A stretch of 64,000 nt of DNA. Origin: Tagaea sp. (lineage in GTDB: Bacteria; Pseudomonadota; Alphaproteobacteria; CACIAM-22H2). The stretch lies in the NCBI GenBank assembly GCA_965229215.1, contig OZ245864.1:134360-198359 (forward strand), given 5' to 3'. Below, piece by piece: positions 4,293-23,523 of this stretch (position 1 is the first letter of the stretch; every line of letters starts with the position of its first letter). The position numbers were made by a program, and so were the translations under genes. A model generated the notes under the pieces. That model was not told where the DNA came from and did no database searches. It worked only from the letters and a program-made list of their open reading frames with translations.

Positions 4293-6315
<2,023 letters not shown>

Positions 6316-6348
6316 CGGGGCGGCCGCGCCGGTAGCGGCCGCGCATGT

Positions 6349-6912
6349 TCAATCGTGGGCGTGGACGAATTCGCCCCGGGCCATCGCGAGATGATGCGGC
6401 TGGTGGTGGCCGCCGCTTGTCATCAGGCCGATGAATCCGAGGCCGCGGATATGGGCGATTTGAGCCGGATTGCCTGACGTCACCACGAGGCGTACGCCGT
6501 CGGCCAGCTTCTCGGCCTTCGCGGTCCACCCGTTCATTTTTCCCAGTTCGGCGGAATGGGCGACGACCATGCGCTGGATGGCGCCGATCGTGCGCCCGGT
6601 ACCGGTCACGCGCACCTCGATGCCGCCGTCGACCTTCGCGACCTTCGCGTCGGCCTTCAGCGTGACGTCGTTCATGTCGATCAGGTGCTGGCGCAACGCC
6701 TCGAGATCGACCTTTGCCCAATCCGTTTTCGCATCGGCTTCGAGGATTCGGACGATCTCCTGGACCGTGCCGAACGCGTCCTGCCCTGGCATCGTCGGCA
6801 CCGTGACAGCCTGTGCCGCAGAATGCATGCCGGCATGCGGGATCTGCTGGGCTTGCGCGGCAGCAGGGAGGGCGGGCAGCAGCAGGGCAAGGGCAAGAAC
6901 GAGATTCTTCAT
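6349..6912 (-). CDS. secreted hypothetical protein with His-rich C-terminus
   Basis: Start at MKNLVLALALLLPALPAAAQA signal peptide (ATG 6910-6912, GGAG RBS). C-terminus HHQPHHLAMARGEFVHAHD suggests metal binding. Confidence 0.5.
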   Translation of the reverse strand: MKNLVLALALLLPALPAAAQAQQIPHAGMHSAAQAVTVPTMPGQDAFGTVQEIVRILEADAKTDWAKVDLEALRQHLIDMNDVTLKADAKVAKVDGGIEVRVTGTGRTIGAIQRMVVAHSAELGKMNGWTAKAEKLADGVRLVVTSGNPAQIAHIRGLGFIGLMTSGGHHQPHHLAMARGEFVHAHD

Positions 6913-12885: not shown

Positions 12886-13968
12886 GTGTCTGCCCGACTT
12901 GAGATCGATCGCGTCGAAACCGCGTACGGGAACGTGCGCGTCCTGAAGGGTGTCTCGCTGGACGTCGCACCGGGCGAGTTCGTCGCCCTGCTGGGATCTT
13001 CGGGCTGCGGGAAGACGACGCTGCTGCGCACGATCGCGGGTTTCCTCAACGCCACGTCGGGCGCCATCCGCGTCGGCGGGCGCGACATTGCGGGCGAGCC
13101 GCCGGACAAGCGCGGCATGGCGATGGTGTTCCAGAGCTACGCGCTGTGGCCGCACATGACGGTGGCGCAGAATATCGGCTACGGCCTGCGCCTGAAAAAA
13201 TGGTCGCGCGAGAAGATCGCGGCGCGCGTCGGCGAGATCCTCACGATGCTGAAGCTCGACGGGCTGGGCGAGCGCAATGTCAGCCAGCTTTCCGGCGGCC
13301 AGCGCCAGCGCGTGGCGCTGGGCCGGGCGCTTGCCGTCGATCCCGCGATCCTGCTGCTCGACGAGCCGCTCTCCAATCTCGACGCGCGCATCCGCGAGGA
13401 CGTGCGCCACGAGATCAAGGCGCTGCAGAAGAGCCTCGGCATCACCGCGATCCACGTCACGCACGACCGCGAGGAAGCCATGGTGATGGCCGACCGCATC
13501 GTCATCCTCGATGCCGGCACGATCGCCCAGGTCGGCCCGCCCGAGACGCTCTACAACCAGCCCAACTCGCCCTTCGTCGCATCCTTCATGGGGGCCAACA
13601 ACGTCGTGCGCCTGACGGGCACGCGGCAGGGCGACATGCTCGCCATCGCGCAAGGGCCGGGCAACCGCGCGACAAGCCTGCGCAAGGCGGCGCCGGCCGG
13701 CTTCACGCAAGGTTCCCTCGTCGCGCATTTCCGCTCCGAAGCGGCCGAACTCGCCGACGGGGCCAGCACCGACTCCGGCGCGCTCATGCTGCCGGGCACG
13801 ATCGTGCAGGCCGCCTATCCCGGCGGCATCTGGCGCTATGCGGTCGCGGTCGGCGACAGCCAGTACATGGTCGACGATCCAGACCGGCGCGAACTCGGCG
13901 CGAAAGTCGCCGTGCGCGTGCCGGCCGAAGCGCTGCACATCTACCCGGCCCCGGTGTCGCCGAACTGA
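12886..13968 (+). CDS. ABC transporter ATP-binding protein (PotA/FbpC-like with C-terminal TOBE domain)
   Basis: Walker A GSSGCGKTT, signature LSGGQRQR and Walker B LLLDEPLSNLD. GTG start with GGGGGGAA RBS. Confidence 0.85.
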   Translation: MSARLEIDRVETAYGNVRVLKGVSLDVAPGEFVALLGSSGCGKTTLLRTIAGFLNATSGAIRVGGRDIAGEPPDKRGMAMVFQSYALWPHMTVAQNIGYGLRLKKWSREKIAARVGEILTMLKLDGLGERNVSQLSGGQRQRVALGRALAVDPAILLLDEPLSNLDARIREDVRHEIKALQKSLGITAIHVTHDREEAMVMADRIVILDAGTIAQVGPPETLYNQPNSPFVASFMGANNVVRLTGTRQGDMLAIAQGPGNRATSLRKAAPAGFTQGSLVAHFRSEAAELADGASTDSGALMLPGTIVQAAYPGGIWRYAVAVGDSQYMVDDPDRRELGAKVAVRVPAEALHIYPAPVSPN

Positions 13969-14053
13969 CACGAAGGTGACGATACAAGACAAGCCGACGG
14001 GCGGGACCGGAAGCCCGGCGGCACAACGAAACCGGTCGAAGATGGAGAGAGAC

Positions 14054-15205
14054 ATGAAACGCAGGACGGTGATTGCCGCATTCGCGGCAGGCACGTTGCT
14101 GGCGGCGGCGGGTGGAGCCAACGCGCAGCAGATCAACCTCAACGTGATGACGGCGGGCGACCAGAACATGGTCGACTACATCACCGAGTATCTCGGGCCG
14201 ATGTTCGAGAAGGCCAATCCGGGCGTGAAGGTACGCGCGGTGGGCACGGGCCCCGGCGACGCCGGCTCGCAGCGCATCTGGGAGCGCCTGGAAGCGCAGA
14301 AGAAGGCGAACTCGGCGACCGTCGACGTCGACGTCGCCATCGTCCACCAGAAGATGGCGGGCGAGATGGTGAAGGGCGGCCTGCTGTCGAAGTACCGCAG
14401 CCAGATCTCGACCGGCAGCATGGCGACCAACGACGTGACGAAGAACGCGCTGGGCGTGAACGTCGACGGATTCGTCATCCCGATGTTCAACAGCCAGATC
14501 GCCATCGCCTACAACCCCGACAAGGTGAAGACGGCGCCGTCGAGCTACGACGATCTCGTCGCCTTCTCGTCCGCCAATCCGAAGCGCTTCGGGCACAACG
14601 GCATCCGCGGCGGCATGTCGGGCGTGGGTTTCGTGTTCGGCTGGCTCTACGCCTATGCCCCGCAGCCGGCCAAGCTGATCGAAGGCCCCTATGACGACGC
14701 GACGGTGGCGGCCCTCACGCCGGCGCTGCAGAAGCTCAAGGCCTTCAACGGCACGGCGACGATCACGCCGGGCAATGCGGGCACGCTCGACGCGCTCAAC
14801 CGCGGCGAGATCGACATGGGCCCGGTGTGGATGGACATGTTCTATTCCTGGCAGGCGGACGGGAAGCTCTCGCCCAAGCTGAAGCTGACGCTGCTCAAGA
14901 CCGGCCTGCCGGGCCAGCCGATGTACTATGTGGTGCCCGAGAAGGCGGCCAACGCGGCCGCCGCGCGCAAGTTCGTCGAAATGGCGACCTCGCCGCAGGT
15001 GCAGGCCAAGGGCATCGTCGAGCGCTTCAACTGGCTGCCGGGCATCGACGCCAGCCACGTGCAGCAGTATCTCGACAAGAAGATCTGGGACAAGCTGTTC
15101 CAGGACGTGCCGCCCGACATGCTGAAGGCGATGGGCAAGCCCATGCCGCAGTCCGACTACTTCACCAAGATCCAGGAACAGTACGAAAAGATCGTCCTGA
15201 ACTGA
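14054..15205 (+). CDS. ABC transporter periplasmic solute-binding protein (family 1, polyamine/iron-like)
   Basis: Start at MKRRTVIAAFAAGTLLAAAGGANAQQ signal peptide (ATG 14054, GGAGAGAG RBS). Lies between the ATPase and two permeases. Confidence 0.8.
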   Translation: MKRRTVIAAFAAGTLLAAAGGANAQQINLNVMTAGDQNMVDYITEYLGPMFEKANPGVKVRAVGTGPGDAGSQRIWERLEAQKKANSATVDVDVAIVHQKMAGEMVKGGLLSKYRSQISTGSMATNDVTKNALGVNVDGFVIPMFNSQIAIAYNPDKVKTAPSSYDDLVAFSSANPKRFGHNGIRGGMSGVGFVFGWLYAYAPQPAKLIEGPYDDATVAALTPALQKLKAFNGTATITPGNAGTLDALNRGEIDMGPVWMDMFYSWQADGKLSPKLKLTLLKTGLPGQPMYYVVPEKAANAAAARKFVEMATSPQVQAKGIVERFNWLPGIDASHVQQYLDKKIWDKLFQDVPPDMLKAMGKPMPQSDYFTKIQEQYEKIVLN

Positions 15206-15260
15206 GCTGACCGAAGGGGAGGGGCCGGCGCGGCGCAACCGCACCGGCCCCGCCGTTCCG

Positions 15261-16094
15261 ATGGGTCCATCGCGCAACATCTCCATCCTCCTGATCGTGC
15301 CCGCCCTCCTCGTGGTGGCGGCGCTATTCGTCTATCCGCTGGGTTTTTCGCTGGTCGGCGCCTTCCAGGACAAGGAATCGGCCTGGACGCTCGCCAATTT
15401 CGGTCGCGCGTGGGAGCTCTACCGCGTCGATACGGCCTTCACGGTCGTCATCGTGCTGGTGTCGTGCGTCCTCATCGCCCTCTTCTCGATCGCCATTGGC
15501 GGATATCTCACGCTGGGCGAAAGCCGCATCGCCAAGGCGATCCTGTCGTTCATCTACCGCTGGCCGCTCTTCATCCCGTTCATCGTCGCCGCCCAGTGCA
15601 TGCGCACCTTCATCGCGCGCAACGGCATGATGAACATGACGTTCGTCTATTTCGGCATCCTCGATCTCGACCAGGTCCAGGGTTTCCTCGACTGGCGCGG
15701 CATCATCATCACGTTCGTGTGGAAGCAGACGCCCTTCGTGGCGCTGATGGTGTCGGGCGCCATGGCCGGGCTCGACCGCTCGACGATCGAGGCGGCGCGC
15801 AACCTTGGCGCCTCGCGCTTGCGCATCCTGGTCGAGATCGTCGTGCCGCAGGTCTCGCGCACGCTTTCCGTCGGCCTCGTCCTGTCGTTCGTGACGATGA
15901 TGTCGGTCCTGTCGGTTCCGCTGATGCTGTCGGGCCAGAGCCCGTCGATGCTGACGGTCAACATGGCCTGGCGCATCAATTCGGTCGGCGACTACGGCAC
16001 GGCCAACGCGCTCGGCTTCGTCTCTTACTTCATGACCGGCTTCGCCGCGTGGTTCTACATCCGCCACGGCCTGCGCGAGAAGGCGGCCCAATGA
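15261..16094 (+). CDS. ABC transporter permease (PotB-like)
   Basis: Six-TM permease in the same operon. Confidence 0.8.
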   Translation: MGPSRNISILLIVPALLVVAALFVYPLGFSLVGAFQDKESAWTLANFGRAWELYRVDTAFTVVIVLVSCVLIALFSIAIGGYLTLGESRIAKAILSFIYRWPLFIPFIVAAQCMRTFIARNGMMNMTFVYFGILDLDQVQGFLDWRGIIITFVWKQTPFVALMVSGAMAGLDRSTIEAARNLGASRLRILVEIVVPQVSRTLSVGLVLSFVTMMSVLSVPLMLSGQSPSMLTVNMAWRINSVGDYGTANALGFVSYFMTGFAAWFYIRHGLREKAAQ

Positions 16095-16900
16095 GCCTGG
16101 CAAGCCTGCGCTGGCCGCTGCGCGCGATCGCCCTGATCCTCGTCGCGTTCGTCATTTTCGGACCGCTCGCCAACCTGCTGATCTGGTCGGTGGCCGAGGC
16201 GTGGTTCTGGCCCAACAAGCTGCCCACGCAGTGGGGTTTCCGCTTCTGGGAGATCGTCTTCCGCCCGACGGGCCGCGCGATGGAATCGCTGTGGCTCAGC
16301 GTGTGGATCGCGCTGCTCACCACCGCGTGCTCGCTGGTGCTGTCGATCCCGGCGGGCTATGCGCTGGCGCGCGGCCGGCTGCCGTGGCGGCCGGTGGTGC
16401 TGCTGCTGTTCCTGCTGCCGCAGGCCTTCCCGAGCCTGCCGGTCTACATCAACATCGCGCGCATCTTCTTCGCCTTCGACCTCAACGGCACGGTCACGGG
16501 CGTGGTGCTCGTCCACACGGTGCACGGGCTGGTCTATTCGGTGTGGATCGCGACGGCCGCGTTCGCCGCTATCGAGCCCGAGCTGGAGCAGGCCGCGCGC
16601 AACATGGGCGCCTCGGCTCCGCGCACCTTCTTCGAGGTGACGCTGCCGCTGGCGCTGCCGGGCCTTGTCGCCAGCGCGATCTTCGTGTTCCTCGAATCGC
16701 TCGACGAGTTCACCGGCAGCTTCTTCGTCGGCGCGCCCGAAGTGCGCACGCTGCCGCTGCTGCTCTACAACGCGGCTGCGGGCGGCAACACGCAGATCGC
16801 GTCGATCTCGGCGCTGATCCTGCTCGTGCCCTCGGTCGCGTTCATGCTGCTGGTCGAGCGCTTCCTCAAGGGCGAGGTGATGGCGAAGCTGGGGCGCTAG
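16091..16900 (+). CDS. ABC transporter permease (PotC-like)
   Basis: Start MSLASLRW at ATG 16091 forms an ATGA overlap with the upstream permease stop. The track only shows this protein inside a longer ORF. Confidence 0.8.
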   Translation: MSLASLRWPLRAIALILVAFVIFGPLANLLIWSVAEAWFWPNKLPTQWGFRFWEIVFRPTGRAMESLWLSVWIALLTTACSLVLSIPAGYALARGRLPWRPVVLLLFLLPQAFPSLPVYINIARIFFAFDLNGTVTGVVLVHTVHGLVYSVWIATAAFAAIEPELEQAARNMGASAPRTFFEVTLPLALPGLVASAIFVFLESLDEFTGSFFVGAPEVRTLPLLLYNAAAGGNTQIASISALILLVPSVAFMLLVERFLKGEVMAKLGR

Positions 16901-17340
16901 GCCTTCTTCGCCATCAGCATCTTCAGCGACGTGACGGCCACGCCGTAGCCCTCGGGGCCGAGGCCCGCGATCACGGCCGTGGCGACGCCGGAGACGAGCG
17001 AGCGGTGGTAGATCGGCTCGCGCCGGTGGATGTTCGAGATGTGCAGTTCCACGATGGGGGCCGGGAACATCTTCAGCGCGTCGAGGATCGCGATCGACGT
17101 GAAGGTGTAGGCCGCCGGATTGATGACGATGCCGCCCGCCCCGCCATCGATGGCCTCGTGGATCCAGTCGATGAGCTGCGTCTCGCTGTTGGTCTGGCGG
17201 AACTCGACCGGCGTTCCGCCGGCCGCCGCGCGGCACATCGCCTCGACCTCGGCCAGCGTCGTGCGGCCGTAGATTTCCGGCTCGCGCTTGCCCAGCCGGT
17301 TCAGGTTCGGGCCGTTGAGGACGTAGATCGGTCTGGTCAT
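16897..17340 (-). CDS. aroQ: 3-dehydroquinate dehydratase, type II
   Basis: 147-aa protein with the type II dehydroquinase signature (NGPNLN..GKRE..YG, HISN). Its start is 7 nt after the dctM stop. Confidence 0.9.
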   Translation of the reverse strand: MTRPIYVLNGPNLNRLGKREPEIYGRTTLAEVEAMCRAAAGGTPVEFRQTNSETQLIDWIHEAIDGGAGGIVINPAAYTFTSIAILDALKMFPAPIVELHISNIHRREPIYHRSLVSGVATAVIAGLGPEGYGVAVTSLKMLMAKKA

Positions 17341-17347
17341 GTGCGCA

Positions 17348-18649
17348 TCAGCCCTGGTAGCCCATCAGGCGCGGCAGCCAGAGGACGGTCTCTGGCACGA
17401 AAGTGATGATCGCCAGTGCCGCGATCATCGCCCAGATGAAGGGCACGCAATCGCGCACGAGATCGCGCAGCGGCACGCCCGCGATATTCGTCATGATGAA
17501 GAGCAGCAGCCCGTAGGGCGGCGTGATCAGGCCCAGCATGATGTTCACGACCACGATCACGCCGAAATGCACCAGATCGACGCCCAATGCCTTGGCGGTC
17601 GGGATCAGGACCGGCACGATGATGAGCAGGATCGTCGTGCCCTCGAGCACGCAGCCCAGCACAAGCAGGATGACGTTGACGAGGATCAGGAACTGCGTGC
17701 CGGTCAGGTCCCAGCCCCGCAGGATGACGCTCAGCGTGTCGGGGATGTTCTCGATCGTGACGACATAGTTGAACACGAGCGCGCCCGCGATCAGCATGCC
17801 GATCGACGCGGTGGTGCGCGCGCTGTGCGAGACCGACTTGTAGAGGTCGCCCCACGTGACGCTGCGGTAGACGCCGGCCGAGATCAGCAACGCGTAGGCG
17901 GCCGCGACGGCCGCGGCCTCCGTCGGCGTCGTGATGCCGCCATAGATGCCGCCGAGCAGCACCACCGGCATCATCAGGGCCGGGAACGCGCGCCACGTGA
18001 TGCCCGGCAGTTCGCGCAGCGGGATCGGATCCTCGACCGGGAACTTCTTCGTCTTCGCCTGGTAGTCGACGATGGCCATCTGGGCGGCCGCCATCATCAG
18101 GCCCGGGATCACGCCGCCCAGAAACAGGTAGCCGATGGAGGCGTCGGAGACGAGCGCGTAGATCACCATCGGGATCGACGGCGGGATGATGGGCCCGATC
18201 ACGGCGGTCGCCGCGGTCAGCGCTGCCGCGAAGCTCGGCGTGTAGCGGTTGTCGCGCGTCATCATGACCTGCATGACCCGGCCCGATCCGGCCGCGTCGG
18301 CGATCGCCGAGCCCGACATGCCGGCGAAGATGACGCTCTGCAGCACGTTGACCTGCGCGAGGCCGCCGCGGAAGCGGCCGACCAGCGCATTGCAGAAGGC
18401 GAGCAGGCGTTCGGTCATGCTGCCGATGTTCATCAGCTCGGCCGCGAGGATGAAGAGCGGGACAGCGAGGATGACGTAGTTGGTGTACATGCCGTTGAGC
18501 AGCTGCTCGGCGACGGTGCCCATGTCCTGGCCCGCGAGGAACAGGTAGAAGACCGAGCCTGCGATCATCGCATGGCCGATCGGCAGGCCGAGCAGCGACA
18601 GGGCGGTGATGGCGACGATGCAGAGGGAGAAGGGGCTCGCGAAATTCAT
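17348..18649 (-). CDS. dctM: TRAP transporter large permease DctM
   Basis: 433-aa protein with 12 TM helices. ATGA overlap with dctQ. Confidence 0.9.
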   Translation of the reverse strand: MNFASPFSLCIVAITALSLLGLPIGHAMIAGSVFYLFLAGQDMGTVAEQLLNGMYTNYVILAVPLFILAAELMNIGSMTERLLAFCNALVGRFRGGLAQVNVLQSVIFAGMSGSAIADAAGSGRVMQVMMTRDNRYTPSFAAALTAATAVIGPIIPPSIPMVIYALVSDASIGYLFLGGVIPGLMMAAAQMAIVDYQAKTKKFPVEDPIPLRELPGITWRAFPALMMPVVLLGGIYGGITTPTEAAAVAAAYALLISAGVYRSVTWGDLYKSVSHSARTTASIGMLIAGALVFNYVVTIENIPDTLSVILRGWDLTGTQFLILVNVILLVLGCVLEGTTILLIIVPVLIPTAKALGVDLVHFGVIVVVNIMLGLITPPYGLLLFIMTNIAGVPLRDLVRDCVPFIWAMIAALAIITFVPETVLWLPRLMGYQG

Positions 18650-19158
18650 ACGCCGGAACTCGCCTTGGTGGGATCGAAGGCAACCGGCGCCTTGCCGCGC
18701 AGCGCTTCCGCCGCGATCCAGATGTAGCGGGCGACGGCGGCGACCGCGAATATCACGTAGATCGAGAAGAGCCAGTCGAAGCGGATCTTCATGTAGGCCG
18801 TTTTCTCGACGCGCATGAACATCACGTAGTCGACGACCGCCGGCAGCGACATGCCGTAGAGCACGATCAGGGCGGCGGCGGAAACGATGCACATGACGCG
18901 GCGCGCGGACGGGCGTACGGCGCCGTAGATCAGGTCGAAGCGGATCTCGTCGGGTTCGCGCACGACGAAAGCGGCGCCCCACAGCACGAGCCAGATCCAC
19001 ATGATGACGCTGATCTCGTGCGTCCAGCCGACCGGAAGGTCGAGCGCGTAGCGGAAGACGATCTGCACGAGGAAGGCGACAAACATCACCGCGAGCATGG
19101 CGGCCGCGACGTTCTCGGCCCGCCGTCCGAGCCAGCGGTAGATCACGGGGAAATTCAT
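18646..19158 (-). CDS. dctQ: TRAP transporter small permease DctQ
   Basis: 170-aa protein with four TM helices upstream of dctM. Confidence 0.85.
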   Translation of the reverse strand: MNFPVIYRWLGRRAENVAAAMLAVMFVAFLVQIVFRYALDLPVGWTHEISVIMWIWLVLWGAAFVVREPDEIRFDLIYGAVRPSARRVMCIVSAAALIVLYGMSLPAVVDYVMFMRVEKTAYMKIRFDWLFSIYVIFAVAAVARYIWIAAEALRGKAPVAFDPTKASSGV

Positions 19159-19212: not shown

Positions 19213-20199
19213 CTAGAGGGCGTTGATCTTCTGCAGCATTCCGGCCGGCCAGCTCTTGGCGAGATCGGAAGCGAGGTACATCTTCTGTGCATGGTCGCGG
19301 AACGCGGCCTGGTTCGGCGTGTAGACGTCGAGGCCCTGCGCCTTGAAGAAGTCGACGAGTTCCTTCTCCTTCTTGGCGTGCTCGGCGTTGCTCCAGCCCA
19401 CGGCACTGTCGGCGGCGGCCTGGAACGCCTTCTGCCTGTCGGCGCCCATATCCTTCCACACCTTGCTCGACACGGTGAGCAGGTCGAAGCCCACGAGATG
19501 CGAGGTCAGCACGATCTGCCCGCTCACTTCGTAGAACTTCATGTTCTGGACGTTGGGCAGCGGGTTGTCCTGGCCGTCGATGGCGCCGGTCTGCAGGCCC
19601 GTATAGACCTCGGCATAGGCCATCGGCACCGGGTTGGCGCCGAGCGAGCGGCCGAGGAACTGCCACGCGTCGCCGCCGGGCATGCGCAGCTTGACGCCGG
19701 CGAGATCGGCCGGGGTGTTGATCTTCTTCTTGCCGCGCAGGCCCACGTGGCGCGAGCCGAAATAGGTCGGGGCGAGGATGCGGATGCCGAGCTGGTCTTC
19801 GGCCATCTGCTTCAGCTGCTGGCCGACGTCGCTGTTGAAGACCTTGGTCATGTGGTCGACGTCGCGGAACAGGTAGGCAGCCGTCATGATCGACCAGGCC
19901 GGGACCTGGTTCGACACGTCCTGCGGCGCGATGTTGCCCATCTCGAGATTGCCGCGCTGGAGCGCGACGAGCTCGGTGCCCTGCTTGAACAGGTTGCCGC
20001 CGTAATAGTTCTGCATCGTGAAGTTCGCGCTCACCGCGTCGGTGAACTTCTTCATCATCTCGGCGCGGATGTCCTGCTCGGAGAACACGGCCGAAAAGCG
20101 CAGCGTCGGCTTGGCCTGCGCGCGCGCGCCGGTCGCGGCCAAAGCGAGAGCGGCCGTGCCGCTCGCAAGGAATGTCCGGCGATTGGGGGTCAGGTTCAT
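19213..20199 (-). CDS. dctP: TRAP transporter substrate-binding protein DctP (Tat signal)
   Basis: RRTFLASGTAALALAA twin-arginine signal. GGAGGAG RBS before ATG 20199. Confidence 0.85.
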   Translation of the reverse strand: MNLTPNRRTFLASGTAALALAATGARAQAKPTLRFSAVFSEQDIRAEMMKKFTDAVSANFTMQNYYGGNLFKQGTELVALQRGNLEMGNIAPQDVSNQVPAWSIMTAAYLFRDVDHMTKVFNSDVGQQLKQMAEDQLGIRILAPTYFGSRHVGLRGKKKINTPADLAGVKLRMPGGDAWQFLGRSLGANPVPMAYAEVYTGLQTGAIDGQDNPLPNVQNMKFYEVSGQIVLTSHLVGFDLLTVSSKVWKDMGADRQKAFQAAADSAVGWSNAEHAKKEKELVDFFKAQGLDVYTPNQAAFRDHAQKMYLASDLAKSWPAGMLQKINAL

Positions 20200-20374
20200 C
20201 TGGGTCTCCTCCAGTGGAAAATGCGCGTTTCGCGTCTGAGTGCCTGAATATTCTCTATGAGAAATAAAGTTTCAATATAAAAATCGAGTTTCATATGAGA
20301 TTTACATTTTTATCGGAGTTTTGGCAGACTCGTGCCATTGATATACGCTGCCGCCGCATCCGACAGGGACGGGC

Positions 20375-21727
20375 ATGGGTATCGAGTTCCACACGTCGAC
20401 CATCACCGAGAAGGTCTATGACCGCCTGCGCGCCGACATCATCTTCGGTCGCCTGGCGCCGGGCCGCCGGCTGCGCCTCGACGGGCTGACGCAGGATTAC
20501 GGGGCGAGCGTCAGCACGCTGCGCGAGATCCTGAACCGCCTCGCTTCCGACGGGTTCGTCGTCGCCGAAGGCCAGCGCGGCTTCGGCGTGGCGCCGGTGT
20601 CGATGGCGGATTTCCAGGAAATCGCCTCGCTGCGCCTGCTGCTCGAGACGCACGCGATCCGCCTGTGCTTCGCGGCCGGCGACGTCGAGTGGGAAGGCGC
20701 GGTCGCCGCCGCGCATCACAAGCTCGACGCGATGGAACGGCGCATGATCGCGGGCGAGCGCGGCGTCACCGAACAGTGGAAGCGCTACGACCGCGAGTTC
20801 CACCAGGCGCTGATCGCCGGCTGCGGCTCGCAGACGCTGCTCGACATCTATGCCGGCGTCTACGACCGCTACCTGCGCTACCAGATGGTCGCGGTGATCT
20901 TCCGCGGCTCGGTCGCGGCCGACGAGCATCAGGCGCTGCTCGACTGCGCGCTGCGCCGCGACGCCGACGCGGCCATTGCGATCCTGCGCGCGCATATCGA
21001 CGGCTGCGTGGCGCACACAAGGTCGGGCGGCCTGCTTGCACCGGGCGGCGCGCATGCGCCCGCCGCCGAGGCCGGCGCCGAGACCGTCGCCGACAACGCC
21101 TACCGGCGCATCCGCGCCGACATCCTGTCGGGCAGCCTTGCGCCGGGACAGAAACTGAAGCTCGACGCGCTCAAGTCGGGCTACGCCACGAGCGTCAGCA
21201 CGCTGCGCGAGATCCTGAACCGCCTCGCCTCCGAGCGGCTGGTCGTCGCCGAGGGGCAGAGGGGCTTCCACGTCGCCCCCGTCTCTGTCGCGAGCCTGAA
21301 GGAGATCGCGGCCCTGCGGCAACTCCTCGAATGCCACGCGCTGGAACAGTCGTTCGCGGCGGGCGACATCGAGTGGGAAGGGGGCGTCGTCGCCGCCCAC
21401 CACAAGCTCGCGCGCATGGAAGAACGCATGGCGGCGGGCGACGCAGGCGCGACGGCGGCGTGGAAGCGCTACGACTGGCAGTTCCACCAGTCGCTGATCT
21501 CGGCCTGCGGGTCGAAGGCGCTGATCGACGCGCACGCGGCCGTTTTCGACCGCTACCTGCGCTACCAGATGACGGCGCTCAGCTATCGCGGCGACATCGC
21601 CTCGGGCGAGCACCGGCAGATGCTGGAATGCGCGCTGACGCGCGACTCGGCGACCGCGTGCGCGGCGTTGCGCCGCCATGTCGAGGGCGGCGTCGCGCAC
21701 GCGCTCGCGACAGGGACGATCCGCTAG
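20375..21727 (+). CDS. GntR/FadR-family regulator made of two tandem complete wHTH+FCD modules
   Basis: One uninterrupted 450-aa frame. Residues about 10-215 and about 225-440 are paralogous: both contain SVSTLREILNRLAS...VAEGQRGF..VAPVS..., HHKL..ME.RM and RYLRYQM. Divergent from dctP. Confidence 0.8.
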   Translation: MGIEFHTSTITEKVYDRLRADIIFGRLAPGRRLRLDGLTQDYGASVSTLREILNRLASDGFVVAEGQRGFGVAPVSMADFQEIASLRLLLETHAIRLCFAAGDVEWEGAVAAAHHKLDAMERRMIAGERGVTEQWKRYDREFHQALIAGCGSQTLLDIYAGVYDRYLRYQMVAVIFRGSVAADEHQALLDCALRRDADAAIAILRAHIDGCVAHTRSGGLLAPGGAHAPAAEAGAETVADNAYRRIRADILSGSLAPGQKLKLDALKSGYATSVSTLREILNRLASERLVVAEGQRGFHVAPVSVASLKEIAALRQLLECHALEQSFAAGDIEWEGGVVAAHHKLARMEERMAAGDAGATAAWKRYDWQFHQSLISACGSKALIDAHAAVFDRYLRYQMTALSYRGDIASGEHRQMLECALTRDSATACAALRRHVEGGVAHALATGTIR

Positions 21728-21731
21728 GCCG

Positions 21732-23024
21732 TCAGCTTCCCCAGATTTCCTTCGCGGCCGAGGCGTACCAGCCGTGCGTATAGCTCGCCTCGTTGTGGCG
21801 GAAGGCGGCCGCGTCGGCCGGCGTGCGCGGGCTGACGCCGCCCGCACCCTGCACGGCGACGATGCCCTGTGCCGTCGCGCGGAAGATATCGGCGACCGAG
21901 ATGCCGTAATCCGGCCCCACCAGCGAATAGCAGGTGTTGGCGTAGACCGGCGCTTCGGCCGGCCGGCCGTTGATCGACGCGGCGATGGCGCGCGCCACGA
22001 ACTTCGCCTGGCTCGACGCCGCGAAGCCCGATTTCGGCATCGCCCCCGCGATCGACGCGTCGCCGATCACGTGGATGTTCTTGTGCAGCGTGGACTCGAA
22101 CGTGAACGGGTTGACCGGGCACCAGCCGGCCTCGTTGGCCAGCCCCGTATCGCGCGCGATCTTGCCGGCGAACTGCGGCGGGATCACGTTGGCGACCGCG
22201 ACCTTGTGTTTCTGCCCGAACTCGCTGACGAGCGTGAGGTCGCCCGGGATCACCTCGACGATCTTGCCGTCCTTGCCCAGCGGCACCCATTCGATCAGGC
22301 CGGGATAGAGGGCGGCCCAGCCGTCCTGGAACAGCGGCTGCTTGGAGAAAGCGTCCTTGGAATCCAACGCCAGGATCTTCGAGCGCGGCTTCGTCGTCTT
22401 CAGGTAGTGCGCGATCATCGAGATGCGTTCGTACGGCCCGGGCGGGCAGCGGAACGGGTTCGCCGGAATCGACAGGGCGACCACGCCGCCGTCTTGCATC
22501 GCCTCAAGCTGCTGGCGCAGCAGAACCGTCTGCGGGCCGGCCTGCCAGGAATGCGGCATGCGCGCCGAAGCGGCTTCGTCGTAGCCCTGGATCGCGCCCC
22601 AGCGCAGGTCGATGCCCGGCGACACGACGAGCCGGTCGTAGGCGAAGCTCTGCCCGCCTGCGGTGCGCACCGTGCGCGCCACGGGATCGATCGCGACCGC
22701 GAAGTCGCGCACATGGCGCACGCCGTGCGTTCCGGTGAGGGCCGCGTAGCCGTGCGTGATGTCGGACATCTTCCTGATGCCGGCGAGCACGTAGTTCGAG
22801 CCGGGGCAGGTCTGGAATTCCGACTTCGGCTCGATCAGCGTGACCGCGATGCCGGGATCTTCCAGGCGGATGAACTTCGCGGCCGTGGCGCCGCCGAAGC
22901 CGCCGCCGATGACGACGACGCGCGCCTTGGCGTTGGCGTCGCTCTGCACGGCGCAGGCGGAAAGGGCGGAGGCGGCCAGCAGCGAACCTGTGAAGCCGCG
23001 GCGGGAAAGCAGGGTGCGGGTCAT
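21732..23024 (-). CDS. fccB: flavocytochrome c sulfide dehydrogenase flavoprotein subunit (FccB/SoxF-like, Tat signal)
   Basis: Start at MTRTLLSRRGFTGSLLAASALSA (ATG 23022-23024, AAGGAG RBS). FAD-binding VVVIGGGFGG motif. Confidence 0.8.
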   Translation of the reverse strand: MTRTLLSRRGFTGSLLAASALSACAVQSDANAKARVVVIGGGFGGATAAKFIRLEDPGIAVTLIEPKSEFQTCPGSNYVLAGIRKMSDITHGYAALTGTHGVRHVRDFAVAIDPVARTVRTAGGQSFAYDRLVVSPGIDLRWGAIQGYDEAASARMPHSWQAGPQTVLLRQQLEAMQDGGVVALSIPANPFRCPPGPYERISMIAHYLKTTKPRSKILALDSKDAFSKQPLFQDGWAALYPGLIEWVPLGKDGKIVEVIPGDLTLVSEFGQKHKVAVANVIPPQFAGKIARDTGLANEAGWCPVNPFTFESTLHKNIHVIGDASIAGAMPKSGFAASSQAKFVARAIAASINGRPAEAPVYANTCYSLVGPDYGISVADIFRATAQGIVAVQGAGGVSPRTPADAAAFRHNEASYTHGWYASAAKEIWGS

Positions 23025-23035
23025 GGGGATCTCCT

Positions 23036-23356
23036 TCAGCGCCAGTTGGCCGAGATTTCCTTGGCGATCGCGACGATCTCGTCGTCGCTGAATCCCTTGG
23101 CGTGGCGGTTCATCACCGTCGCCGGACGGCGGTCGGTCTTGAACTCCTGCATCGCCTGGACGATCTGCGCCTCGGTGCGCCCGAAGATCGACGGGATCTC
23201 GCCGGCACTGCGCCCGGCGGGTCCGTGGCATCCCGAGCAGGTCGCCGCGAGCGTGCGGCCGCTGGGCGGTGGCGGGGTCTGCGCGTGTGCGGCCGTGGCG
23301 GAAGCTGCGACAAACAGCCCCAGCGCGAAAGCCAAATGGCGGATCGGGTGCTTCAT
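23036..23356 (-). CDS. fccA: monoheme cytochrome c subunit (FccA/SoxE-like)
   Basis: Signal peptide and a single CSGCH heme motif. ATG 23354-23356 with AGGAAGGAA RBS. Its stop is 11 nt before fccB. Confidence 0.75.
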   Translation of the reverse strand: MKHPIRHLAFALGLFVAASATAAHAQTPPPPSGRTLAATCSGCHGPAGRSAGEIPSIFGRTEAQIVQAMQEFKTDRRPATVMNRHAKGFSDDEIVAIAKEISANWR

Positions 23357-23523
23357 TTCCGGCGTTCCTTCCTGAATTTCCATTCAGTTCAGGCGAGTAT
23401 GGGGGTGCTTCGGCGTCGTTGGCAAGCCGTGCGGCCTGTGTAGTCCGAAGCGGACCTGCCCGACAATCCAACGTTTCTAAACGCCTCCTTTAGTTTGACG
23501 GTGGGCTTGGGTACAACAAACGG

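Follow-up and report, generated by a model that had tools for sequence, protein, structure and literature searches.

Transcriptional regulators that join a GntR-type winged helix-turn-helix (wHTH) to an FCD domain are among the commonest bacterial repressors, and they are treated as homodimers of separate chains. Two dimer-forming DNA-binding units have been placed on one chain, with a flexible linker between them, in engineered single-chain repressors such as single-chain TetR, Arc and lambda Cro. In nature, the double histone fold is an intramolecular pseudodimer (reviewed in PMC13088155). The present analysis concerns a natural covalent form of a GntR/FCD regulator, encoded by a single gene in a stretch of 64,000 nucleotides from Tagaea sp. 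(GenBank assembly GCA_965229215.1, contig OZ245864.1, positions 134,360 to 198,359 of the forward strand), hereafter the window, where it stands beside a divergent operon, dctPQM-aroQ (Table 1). Engineered single-chain repressors and double histone folds belong to other families, whereas the fusion in the window is natural, is recurrent and joins long-diverged paralogues instead of identical copies.

The closest described systems are regulators of the VanR group, including Atu1419/VanR (6za3), TM0439 (3sxy, 3fms), PmiR (7xp0), McbR/YncC (4p9f) and a Brucella protein (7u5q). This group is marked by six, not seven, helices in the FCD domain (PMC7797058), and its metal site is made up of three His plus an Asp or Asn, namely N144, H148, H192 and H214 in Ps5454 and likewise in TM0439 (PMC7674646). 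Each module of the window protein is like these proteins in its wHTH, its six-helix FCD domain and its Asp/Asn plus three His, and the locus is like theirs in having palindromic operator candidates over a promoter and a divergent catabolic/uptake operon. The solved VanR-group members, however, hold one module in about 200-265 amino acids (aa) and form dimers or tetramers of separate chains, whereas the window protein carries two modules in one chain. We conclude that it is a natural single-chain VanR-type GntR regulator derived from a fused pair of ancient paralogues, a real and moderately surprising variant of the family.

The two-module structure had been proposed in a first-pass annotation of the sequence, and the open reading frame (ORF), a self-alignment, Pfam and a structure model all agree on a single uninterrupted frame of 450 aa with two complete wHTH-FCD modules. 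No internal stop codon occurs in the frame, according to the ORF list and the sequence itself. Residues 4-221 align to residues 232-449 without gaps and with 128 of 218 identities (58.7%, where 'about 60%' had been estimated), and the DNA identity between the halves is 69.4%. The Pfam models GntR (PF00392; E=1.4e-31, 108.4 bits against a cut-off of 27) and FCD (PF07729; E=1.3e-33, 116.5 bits against a cut-off of 24.3) each match in two stretches, which places the protein in the GntR superfamily and, within it, in the FadR subfamily with its FCD domain. An AlphaFold2 (AF2) model built from 103 fused homologues reached a predicted local distance difference test score (pLDDT) of 91.7 and a predicted TM-score (pTM) of 0.90. 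It contains two wHTH units of three helices and two strands each and two bundles of six helices, the number found in the VanR group, joined by a linker of lower confidence (pLDDT about 70); the modelling that had been suggested as a check thus returned two complete modules. The best Foldseek matches of this model were VanR-group members, each covering one module at a target-normalised TM-score (TMt) of 0.77-0.85, with FadR proper at a TMt of 0.44-0.47. No chain in the PDB spans more than one module, either by sequence or by fold (query-normalised TM-score, TMq, at most 0.41). A HMMER alignment to 3c7j maps the metal ligands to one Asp and three His in the first module, with equivalents in the second, and these predicted residues are invariant or near-invariant in the 103 fused homologues. 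Neither module therefore appears degenerate, and both pockets are predicted to be intact. The usual GntR/FCD arrangement, a dimer or tetramer of separate identical chains, does not describe a gene that has two non-identical modules per chain.

The fused frame has been kept over a considerable evolutionary distance. An intact ORF of 450-453 aa with the same start (MGIEF...) and the same end (...ALATGTIR) is present in eight Tagaea-clade genomes (the window and seven genome loci), a clade that spans divergence down to about 78% identity; the closest loci in the species-representative genome collection are Tagaea-like metagenome-assembled genomes (Rhodospirillaceae). In a comparison of these eight, the ratio of non-synonymous to synonymous divergence (dN/dS) stays within 0.06-0.41 for every one of the four domains, and the linker evolves faster (dN 0.2-0.6), varies in length and sequence and has gained and lost residues through indels that are multiples of three. 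The linker has no in-frame start codon, so that the second module can be produced only within the fusion. Beyond this clade, a search of 5.8 billion protein clusters found more than 100 clusters of about 445-480 aa at 55-92% identity and 97-100% coverage, which come from Tagaea, Azospirillum, Lacibacterium, Roseomonas/Humitalea, Tepidamorphus, Halomonas, Pararhodobacter and many metagenomes and are named only generically, as 'GntR family transcriptional regulator'. The window protein fits an orthologous group of fused double GntR/FCD proteins, with an N-type and then a C-type module in one ORF and similarity over the full length. A single-chain double GntR protein, as first proposed, is thus genuine, with eight related genomes and over 100 protein clusters that share it.

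Within the FCD regulators at large, this form is nevertheless unusual, as had been supposed. An exhaustive HMMER search of 1.84 billion representatives (clusters at 50% identity) gave 407 at E<=1e-30, among which the whole fused family is one representative, P0120, and among the best 150 of the 407 only two are double-length proteins, P0120 and P0130. The latter has 493 aa and the same wHTH-FCD-wHTH-FCD order as the window protein, to which it is 38% identical. Between its own halves the identity is 72.6%, and it is therefore the product of an independent, younger duplication-fusion in another FCD lineage; such events have thus occurred at least twice among the FCD regulators. Other single-chain double-GntR proteins, for which a search had been recommended, accordingly comprise the more than 100 family clusters plus P0130. 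A literature search returned nothing on tandem or double GntR/FCD proteins or on GntR heterodimers. The tandem GntR/FCD architecture is rare but recurrent, already in the databases and apparently uncharacterised.

The origin of the gene is different from the internal tandem duplication that the first-pass annotation had assumed. In a scan of 79 related genome loci, one fused ORF was found at 8 (in the Tagaea clade and Halomonas), two adjacent ORFs, of which the N-like one comes first and the C-like one second, at 45 (Microvirga, Phreatobacter, Ferrovibrionaceae and others) and a single module at 26, mainly from Bosea, 3 of which lie at contig ends and may be truncated. Separate adjacent genes are therefore the state of 45 of the 53 two-module genome loci, and no second module copy was found within 6 kb of the single-module loci on either strand. 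In a neighbour-joining tree of 359 modules, the 165 position-1 modules and the 168 position-2 modules form two separate clades without exception, with the two halves of the window protein placed in the corresponding clades and the Bosea single modules branching near the base. This complete separation points to one ancient duplication that is not private to the window gene. The halves are ancient paralogues that exist as separate, ATGA-coupled genes in most genomes sampled, and the window gene is best described, on these comparisons, as a gene fusion of two neighbouring sister genes. The split pair (Microvirga, Phreatobacter) and the single-gene orthologue (Bosea) share with the window the same dctPQM-aroQ locus and the same class of operator motif, and the split pair also has the same module types in the same N-then-C order, which is invariant. 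The window gene differs from the split pair in that the stop/start junction has been lost and both modules are translated as one chain, whereas the Bosea type has one module.

The junction of the split genes indicates how such a fusion could arise. The TGA of the N gene overlaps the ATG or GTG of the C gene as ATGA in 43 of the 45 split loci, and an ATGA overlap of stop and start is the usual signature of translational coupling. In the closest split relative (locus L010), the N gene ends in ...AHTRALGVLP followed by its stop and the C gene starts with MTGRIAVLSEGSAAESVADVAY, and both are collinear with the window linker, ...AHTRSGGLLAPGGAHAPAAEAGAETVADNAY. The linker thus appears to consist of the former C-terminal tail of the N gene plus the former N-terminal tail of the C gene. 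The distance equivalent to V212..R247 is 32-48 residues in fused proteins, as compared with 26-35 for the summed tails of split pairs. A 2-nt deletion in the ATGA would fit the length of the linker (21 aa in the window and 22 aa in L010), at a divergence of 25%, which precludes establishing it. Programmed -1 frameshifting at the ATGA junction was considered as a way for split loci to yield some fused protein, but no slippery heptamer was seen in the junctions displayed, a point that was not examined further. In a tree of concatenated N and C modules (165 pairs), the fused and the split state are mixed among the branches and require at least 8 changes (6-9 in bootstraps), while the fused state also fills large clades of 19 and 56 sampled proteins. 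A split ancestor with several independent fusions is favoured, because split lineages that branch deeply have the ATGA junction in common and the N subtree has split genes on its basal branches. At three loci (L033, L051 and L054, at about 5950-6650 in each), a lone C-type gene nested in the position-2 clade adjoins dctPQM, which suggests that the N-type partner was secondarily lost and that the C-type module can apparently work alone.

It had further been supposed that the fused form could create asymmetric operator recognition, and here the comparison of the modules gives the earlier proposal no support. Both halves have exactly the same recognition helix, SVSTLREILNRLAS, and a single residue sets their wings apart. 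The recognition helix, the wing and the Asp plus three His site are among 65 columns in which one and the same residue is at least 90% conserved in the N-type modules (165) as well as in the C-type modules (168). The 13 columns that discriminate N-type from C-type are all in the FCD domain, with none in the wHTH. The same operator is found at single-module loci, and the half-site mismatch (out of 8) is 2.9 at fused, 3.2 at split and 4.1 at single loci, i.e. it is no higher in fused loci. Single-module regulators presumably act as homodimers. Any asymmetry, if there is any, would lie in the effector/dimerisation domains. The discriminating columns are found on FCD helices a4, a5, a6, a7 and a9, of which a4, a7 and a9 make up the dimer interface in VanR Atu1419 (PMC7797058). 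When the Bosea single modules are used to polarise the changes, positions 79, 80 (L to F), 104 and 140 (W to R/K, adjoining the metal ligand D139) are derived in the N-type, and positions 350, 353, 400, 402, 403, 439 (C to G), 443 and 449 are derived in the C-type. As compared with FadR, the equivalent of the base-contacting Arg45 reads as Val in both modules, and the operator core TCATATGA is without the usual GT...AC signature. A run of 40 nt spanning both recognition helices (20505-20544 and 21189-21228) is 100% identical between the halves. Gene conversion was considered as its cause and rejected: where the halves of this GC-rich gene have the same residue, they also use the same codon in 73% of cases, so that the run is not significant and is probably explained by codon bias together with purifying selection.

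The neighbouring operon is the one originally described, with Pfam matches for all four of its genes: a tripartite ATP-independent periplasmic (TRAP) transporter, dctPQM, followed by aroQ. Wherever the flanking sequence is long enough, this dctP-dctQ-dctM-aroQ cassette is almost always found with the regulator, whether the regulator is single, split or fused; the Phreatobacter group has it about 3 kb downstream instead. In Microvirga and Phreatobacter, two more genes belong to the cluster, one for a shikimate/quinate dehydrogenase and one for a protein of about 630 aa in which a xylose-isomerase-like TIM barrel is combined with a 4-hydroxyphenylpyruvate dioxygenase (HPPD)-like domain, an architecture which we take to be that of a QuiC1-type 3-dehydroshikimate dehydratase. 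Both of these genes are within 6 kb at 35 of the 45 split loci. The synteny of the cassette and the clusters of the relatives together point to uptake and catabolism of quinate/shikimate-type hydroaromatic acids as the theme of the regulon, and the fused regulator most likely controls the adjacent uptake operon of this type. The literature search found no GntR regulator of TRAP-linked quinate/shikimate genes.

Upstream regions were compared by means of an 18-bp position weight matrix (PWM) that is common to 63 of them and has the consensus AAAATCATCTGATATTTT. The best-matching site in the window, site B, is unique in the window and forms an invariant block in the alignment of seven fused loci and the closest split locus, and an identical operator sequence, AGTTTCATATGAGATTTT, adjoins two single-module regulators (L061 and L067). 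A second operator-like site, site A, is kept within the Tagaea clade and is not found in L010; it overlaps the -10/spacer region of the dctP promoter candidate, which is the only sigma-70-like promoter found and has both hexamers conserved in the clade alignment. This layout fits a presumed repression of dctPQM-aroQ by promoter occlusion.

Table 1. Features of the regulator locus and of the divergent operon (positions in the window; residues for the predicted metal sites)
Feature	Position	Strand	Details and basis
Fused double GntR/FCD regulator gene	20375..21727	+	ATG start, 450 aa, stop included; ORF list and sequence
N-type module, wHTH	20402..20599	+	aa 10-75; AF2 helices (H) and strands (E) H10-23, H35-42, H46-58, E62-64, E70-72; Pfam GntR
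N-type module, six-helix FCD domain	20603..21028	+	aa 77-218; AF2 helices 77-101, 104-125, 129-150, 153-173, 179-194, 197-218
N-type module, predicted metal/effector site	D139, H143, H185, H207		alignment to Ps5454/TM0439 metal ligands; invariant in fused homologues
Inter-module linker	21029..21085	+	aa 219-237; AF2 pLDDT about 68-71
C-type module, wHTH	21086..21283	+	aa 238-303; AF2 H238-252, H263-270, H274-286, E290-292, E298-300; best Pfam GntR stretch 240-300
C-type module, six-helix FCD domain	21287..21712	+	aa 305-446; AF2 helices 305-329 to 425-446
C-type module, predicted metal/effector site	D367, H371, H413, H435		mapped as for the N-type; invariant or near-invariant
dctP, TRAP solute-binding protein, first gene of divergent operon	19213..20199	-	Pfam DctP 1.6e-60; NCBIfam TRAP_S1
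dctQ, TRAP small membrane subunit	18646..19158	-	Pfam DctQ 3.4e-14; synteny
dctM, TRAP large membrane subunit	17348..18649	-	Pfam DctM 8.9e-109; synteny
aroQ, type II 3-dehydroquinate dehydratase, last operon gene	16897..17340	-	Pfam DHquinase_II 9.6e-51; NCBIfam NF003806 189.7 bits vs cut-off 171; synteny
Operator-like site B, TTTCATATGAGAT	20289..20301	.	best PWM match in window; perfect palindrome core TCATATGA at 20291-20298
Operator-like site A, TCTCTATGAGA	20252..20262	.	4+3+4 palindrome, 38 bp from site B; direct repeat TATGAGA..., spacing 38
Sigma-70-like dctP promoter candidate	20247..20275	-	TTGAAA-17 nt-AATATT; consensus scan, 1 found vs 0.3 expected

The reading that we prefer, at a probability of roughly 0.6, is that the two modules pair within the chain as a pseudo-heterodimer, which recognises palindromic operators as an ordinary VanR-type dimer does and leaves them in response to a hydroaromatic effector; the intramolecular pairing, the repression and the identity of the effector are what we infer. 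More specifically, two adjacent ATGA-coupled paralogue genes, the N-type followed by the C-type, would have been fused by a small frameshifting change at their junction, and their former tails would have become a flexible linker of about 20 residues. Both protomers of the usual dimer would then be made as one polypeptide, and the chain would fold into the pseudo-heterodimer, whose two essentially identical DNA-reading heads would bind operators of the TCATATGA type between the regulator gene and dctP. With one such operator lying over the dctP core promoter, dctPQM-aroQ would be repressed until the effector arrives, presumably a hydroaromatic carboxylate (quinate, shikimate, dehydroshikimate or a related compound) taken up in the metal-containing FCD pockets. 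The fusion would lock the 1:1 stoichiometry that is otherwise achieved by ATGA translational coupling.

Several points weigh against this reading, or against parts of it: (i) a single-chain AF2 model can only pair N with C, so that its pTM of 0.90 is consistent with the preferred reading but may be compatible with inter-chain pairing too, (ii) activation would also suit the position of site B, some 55 bp upstream of the inferred dctP start, (iii) no promoter for the regulator gene itself passed the consensus scan, (iv) the pair of shikimate dehydrogenase and QuiC1-type genes is near none of the fused loci and is absent from the 64-kb window, so that the guess at the effector rests on the relatives, (v) with three C-type-only lineages, heterodimerisation is not obligatory for every relative, and (vi) the direction of change, fusion versus fission, is not proven, as the deep branches are short and the protein sample is biased to fused forms.

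Pairing between chains (N-N' with C-C', or N-C') is an unlikely alternative, although a coherent one: it would make the protein a tethered dimer of dimers with four DNA heads, occupying sites A and B together in a cooperative or DNA-bending repression. The two operator-like sites 38 bp apart and a weaker series with 19-bp spacing would suit such an assembly, as would the inability of single-chain modelling to separate intra- from inter-chain contacts. Indeed, Atu1419 of the VanR group is a functional tetramer that binds two palindromes (PMC7797058), and in the C-type-only lineages the C module presumably homodimerises. The 19-bp-spaced sites, however, also occur at single-module loci and are hence not tied to fusion, while the invariant N-C order and the ATGA coupling, which means equimolar synthesis, fit a 1:1 complex of N with C. 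Furthermore, V212 and R247 are separated by at least 32 residues in every fused protein, which suggests that geometry constrains the linker.

The pseudo-heterodimer might also be more than a covalent version of an ordinary dimer. In a more speculative proposal, which we consider doubtful, the N-type and C-type modules are an obligate, functionally asymmetric heterodimer, with identical DNA heads, diverged effector domains and reciprocal changes on the interface helices, which integrates two hydroaromatic signals or has one site as a regulatory 'dummy', and whose recurrent fusion has been selected to lock the 1:1 ratio. Beside the metal ligand the C-type keeps the ancestral W368, where the N-type has R/K140. 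If true, the window protein would be a natural single-chain repressor with two inputs, and the series of single gene, coupled pair and fusion would serve for studying the evolution of transcription-factor heterodimers.

Less probable still is that the fusion has little functional meaning, with the N-type and C-type modules acting as independent homodimeric regulators, e.g. of different effectors. The ease of the mutation speaks for this, since across an ATGA overlap an indel of 1-2 nt is enough to fuse the genes and recurrence could follow from that alone; the linker is merely the former tails, and the states are interspersed on the tree with at least 6-9 transitions between fused and split. 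The confinement of all 13 discriminating columns to the effector/dimerisation domain, including the difference between W368 and R/K140 by D139, could likewise mean different ligands. Separate homodimers, once fused, would nevertheless be forced into higher-order assemblies, which is not neutral, and the fused genes are kept intact under purifying selection, both in the clade reaching about 78% identity and in the clades of 19 and 56 proteins. With identical heads, moreover, both paralogues would compete for one operator, which is hard to square with independence.

Finally, there is next to no chance that the single ORF is an error, with two genes joined by a collapsed or expanded assembly or by a frameshift in sequencing and no single protein expressed from them: the closest non-Tagaea relatives (L010 and L011) and most sampled genomes do have two genes one reading frame apart, so that a single indel error could mimic a fusion, but this worry, raised at the outset, is effectively refuted by the agreement of eight independent clade assemblies on start, end and intact frame with linker indels in threes, by the more than 100 further fused clusters from isolates and metagenomes, by the linker without an in-frame start for a separate C module, and by halves that, at just 69% identity in DNA, are too far apart for assembly collapse.

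The locus is thus a natural covalent GntR/FCD form that is part of a three-state series, single, coupled pair and fused, at one orthologous locus, and its main value lies in this series and in its pointing to a regulator of quinate/shikimate-type uptake. The series allows a test of heterodimers between paralogous FCD proteins, for which the fusion is a 'Rosetta-stone' hint, and the protein may offer a natural scaffold for single-chain, stoichiometry-locked biosensors of hydroaromatic acids. The regulator of uptake and catabolism of quinate/shikimate in Alphaproteobacteria to which it points would be of the GntR type and so far uncharacterised.

The locus also carries a caution for annotation. 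The nearest named model is the NCBIfam CsiR equivalog (NF008576), which scores 219.2 bits against a cut-off of 218 in two stretches on a model of 225 positions, and each window module does resemble CsiR-type FCD regulators. The assignment was rejected, as the threshold is passed by 1.2 bits only when the two modules are summed, and the neighbours are dctPQM-aroQ and not of the csiD/gab type. Double modules inflate the scores of profile hidden Markov models, and pipelines could in this way mis-name fused GntR/FCD proteins as CsiR.

A number of further observations were made in the surroundings of the gene. Operator-like units run head-to-tail with a 19-bp period over 20250-20325 (TATTCTCTATGAGAAATAA / AGTTTCAATATAAAAATCG / AGTTTCATATGAGATTTAC / ATTTTTATCGGAGTTTTGG), and a series of this kind is present in the upstream regions of L062 and L018 too (Bosea, -105/-86/-67; Microvirga, -114/-95/-76), which suggests that in every architecture several regulator units may sit on the DNA next to one another. 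The block TGCGCGTTTCGCGTCTGAG (20222-20240), located between the promoter candidate for dctP and the ribosome-binding site of that gene, is kept in the Tagaea clade and L010 and could be a short GC hairpin in the 5' untranslated region or a site for another factor; an Rfam scan of the intergenic region gave only a sub-threshold chance match. Within the operon, dctQ ends and dctM begins in a shared ATGA (18646-18649), the motif by which the N and C genes of split relatives are coupled. The closest solved relative of the window DctP is 4pf6 (293 bits); a single-sequence AF2 model of DctP was poor (pLDDT 35.6), and Foldseek with that model returned no match to 4pf6. In Rhizobium leguminosarum (plasmid pRltTA1B, locus L080, 7983-16648), two adjacent GntR genes with a gap of 75 nt accompany a related cluster of a QuiC1-type enzyme, aroQ, a shikimate dehydrogenase, a Gfo/Idh/MocA oxidoreductase and an amino-acid-type ATP-binding cassette (ABC) transporter that replaces the TRAP transporter. 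These two are not an N/C pair, one being C-type-like and the other a more divergent paralogue.

Past the regulator stop by 5 nt, and convergent to it on the minus strand (21732-23383), lie the gene for a flavocytochrome c sulfide dehydrogenase (FCSD) flavoprotein (FCSD_central and FCSD-flav_bind) and a small ORF that has a CSGCH haem c-binding motif and no Pfam match; nothing ties either to the regulator, and both are also present in L001-L004. On the other side, an ABC transporter operon on the plus strand (13838-16900) is convergent to aroQ and comprises an SBP_bac_1 binding protein (13838-15205), a permease (15261-16094) and a probable second permease that extends up to about 16900.

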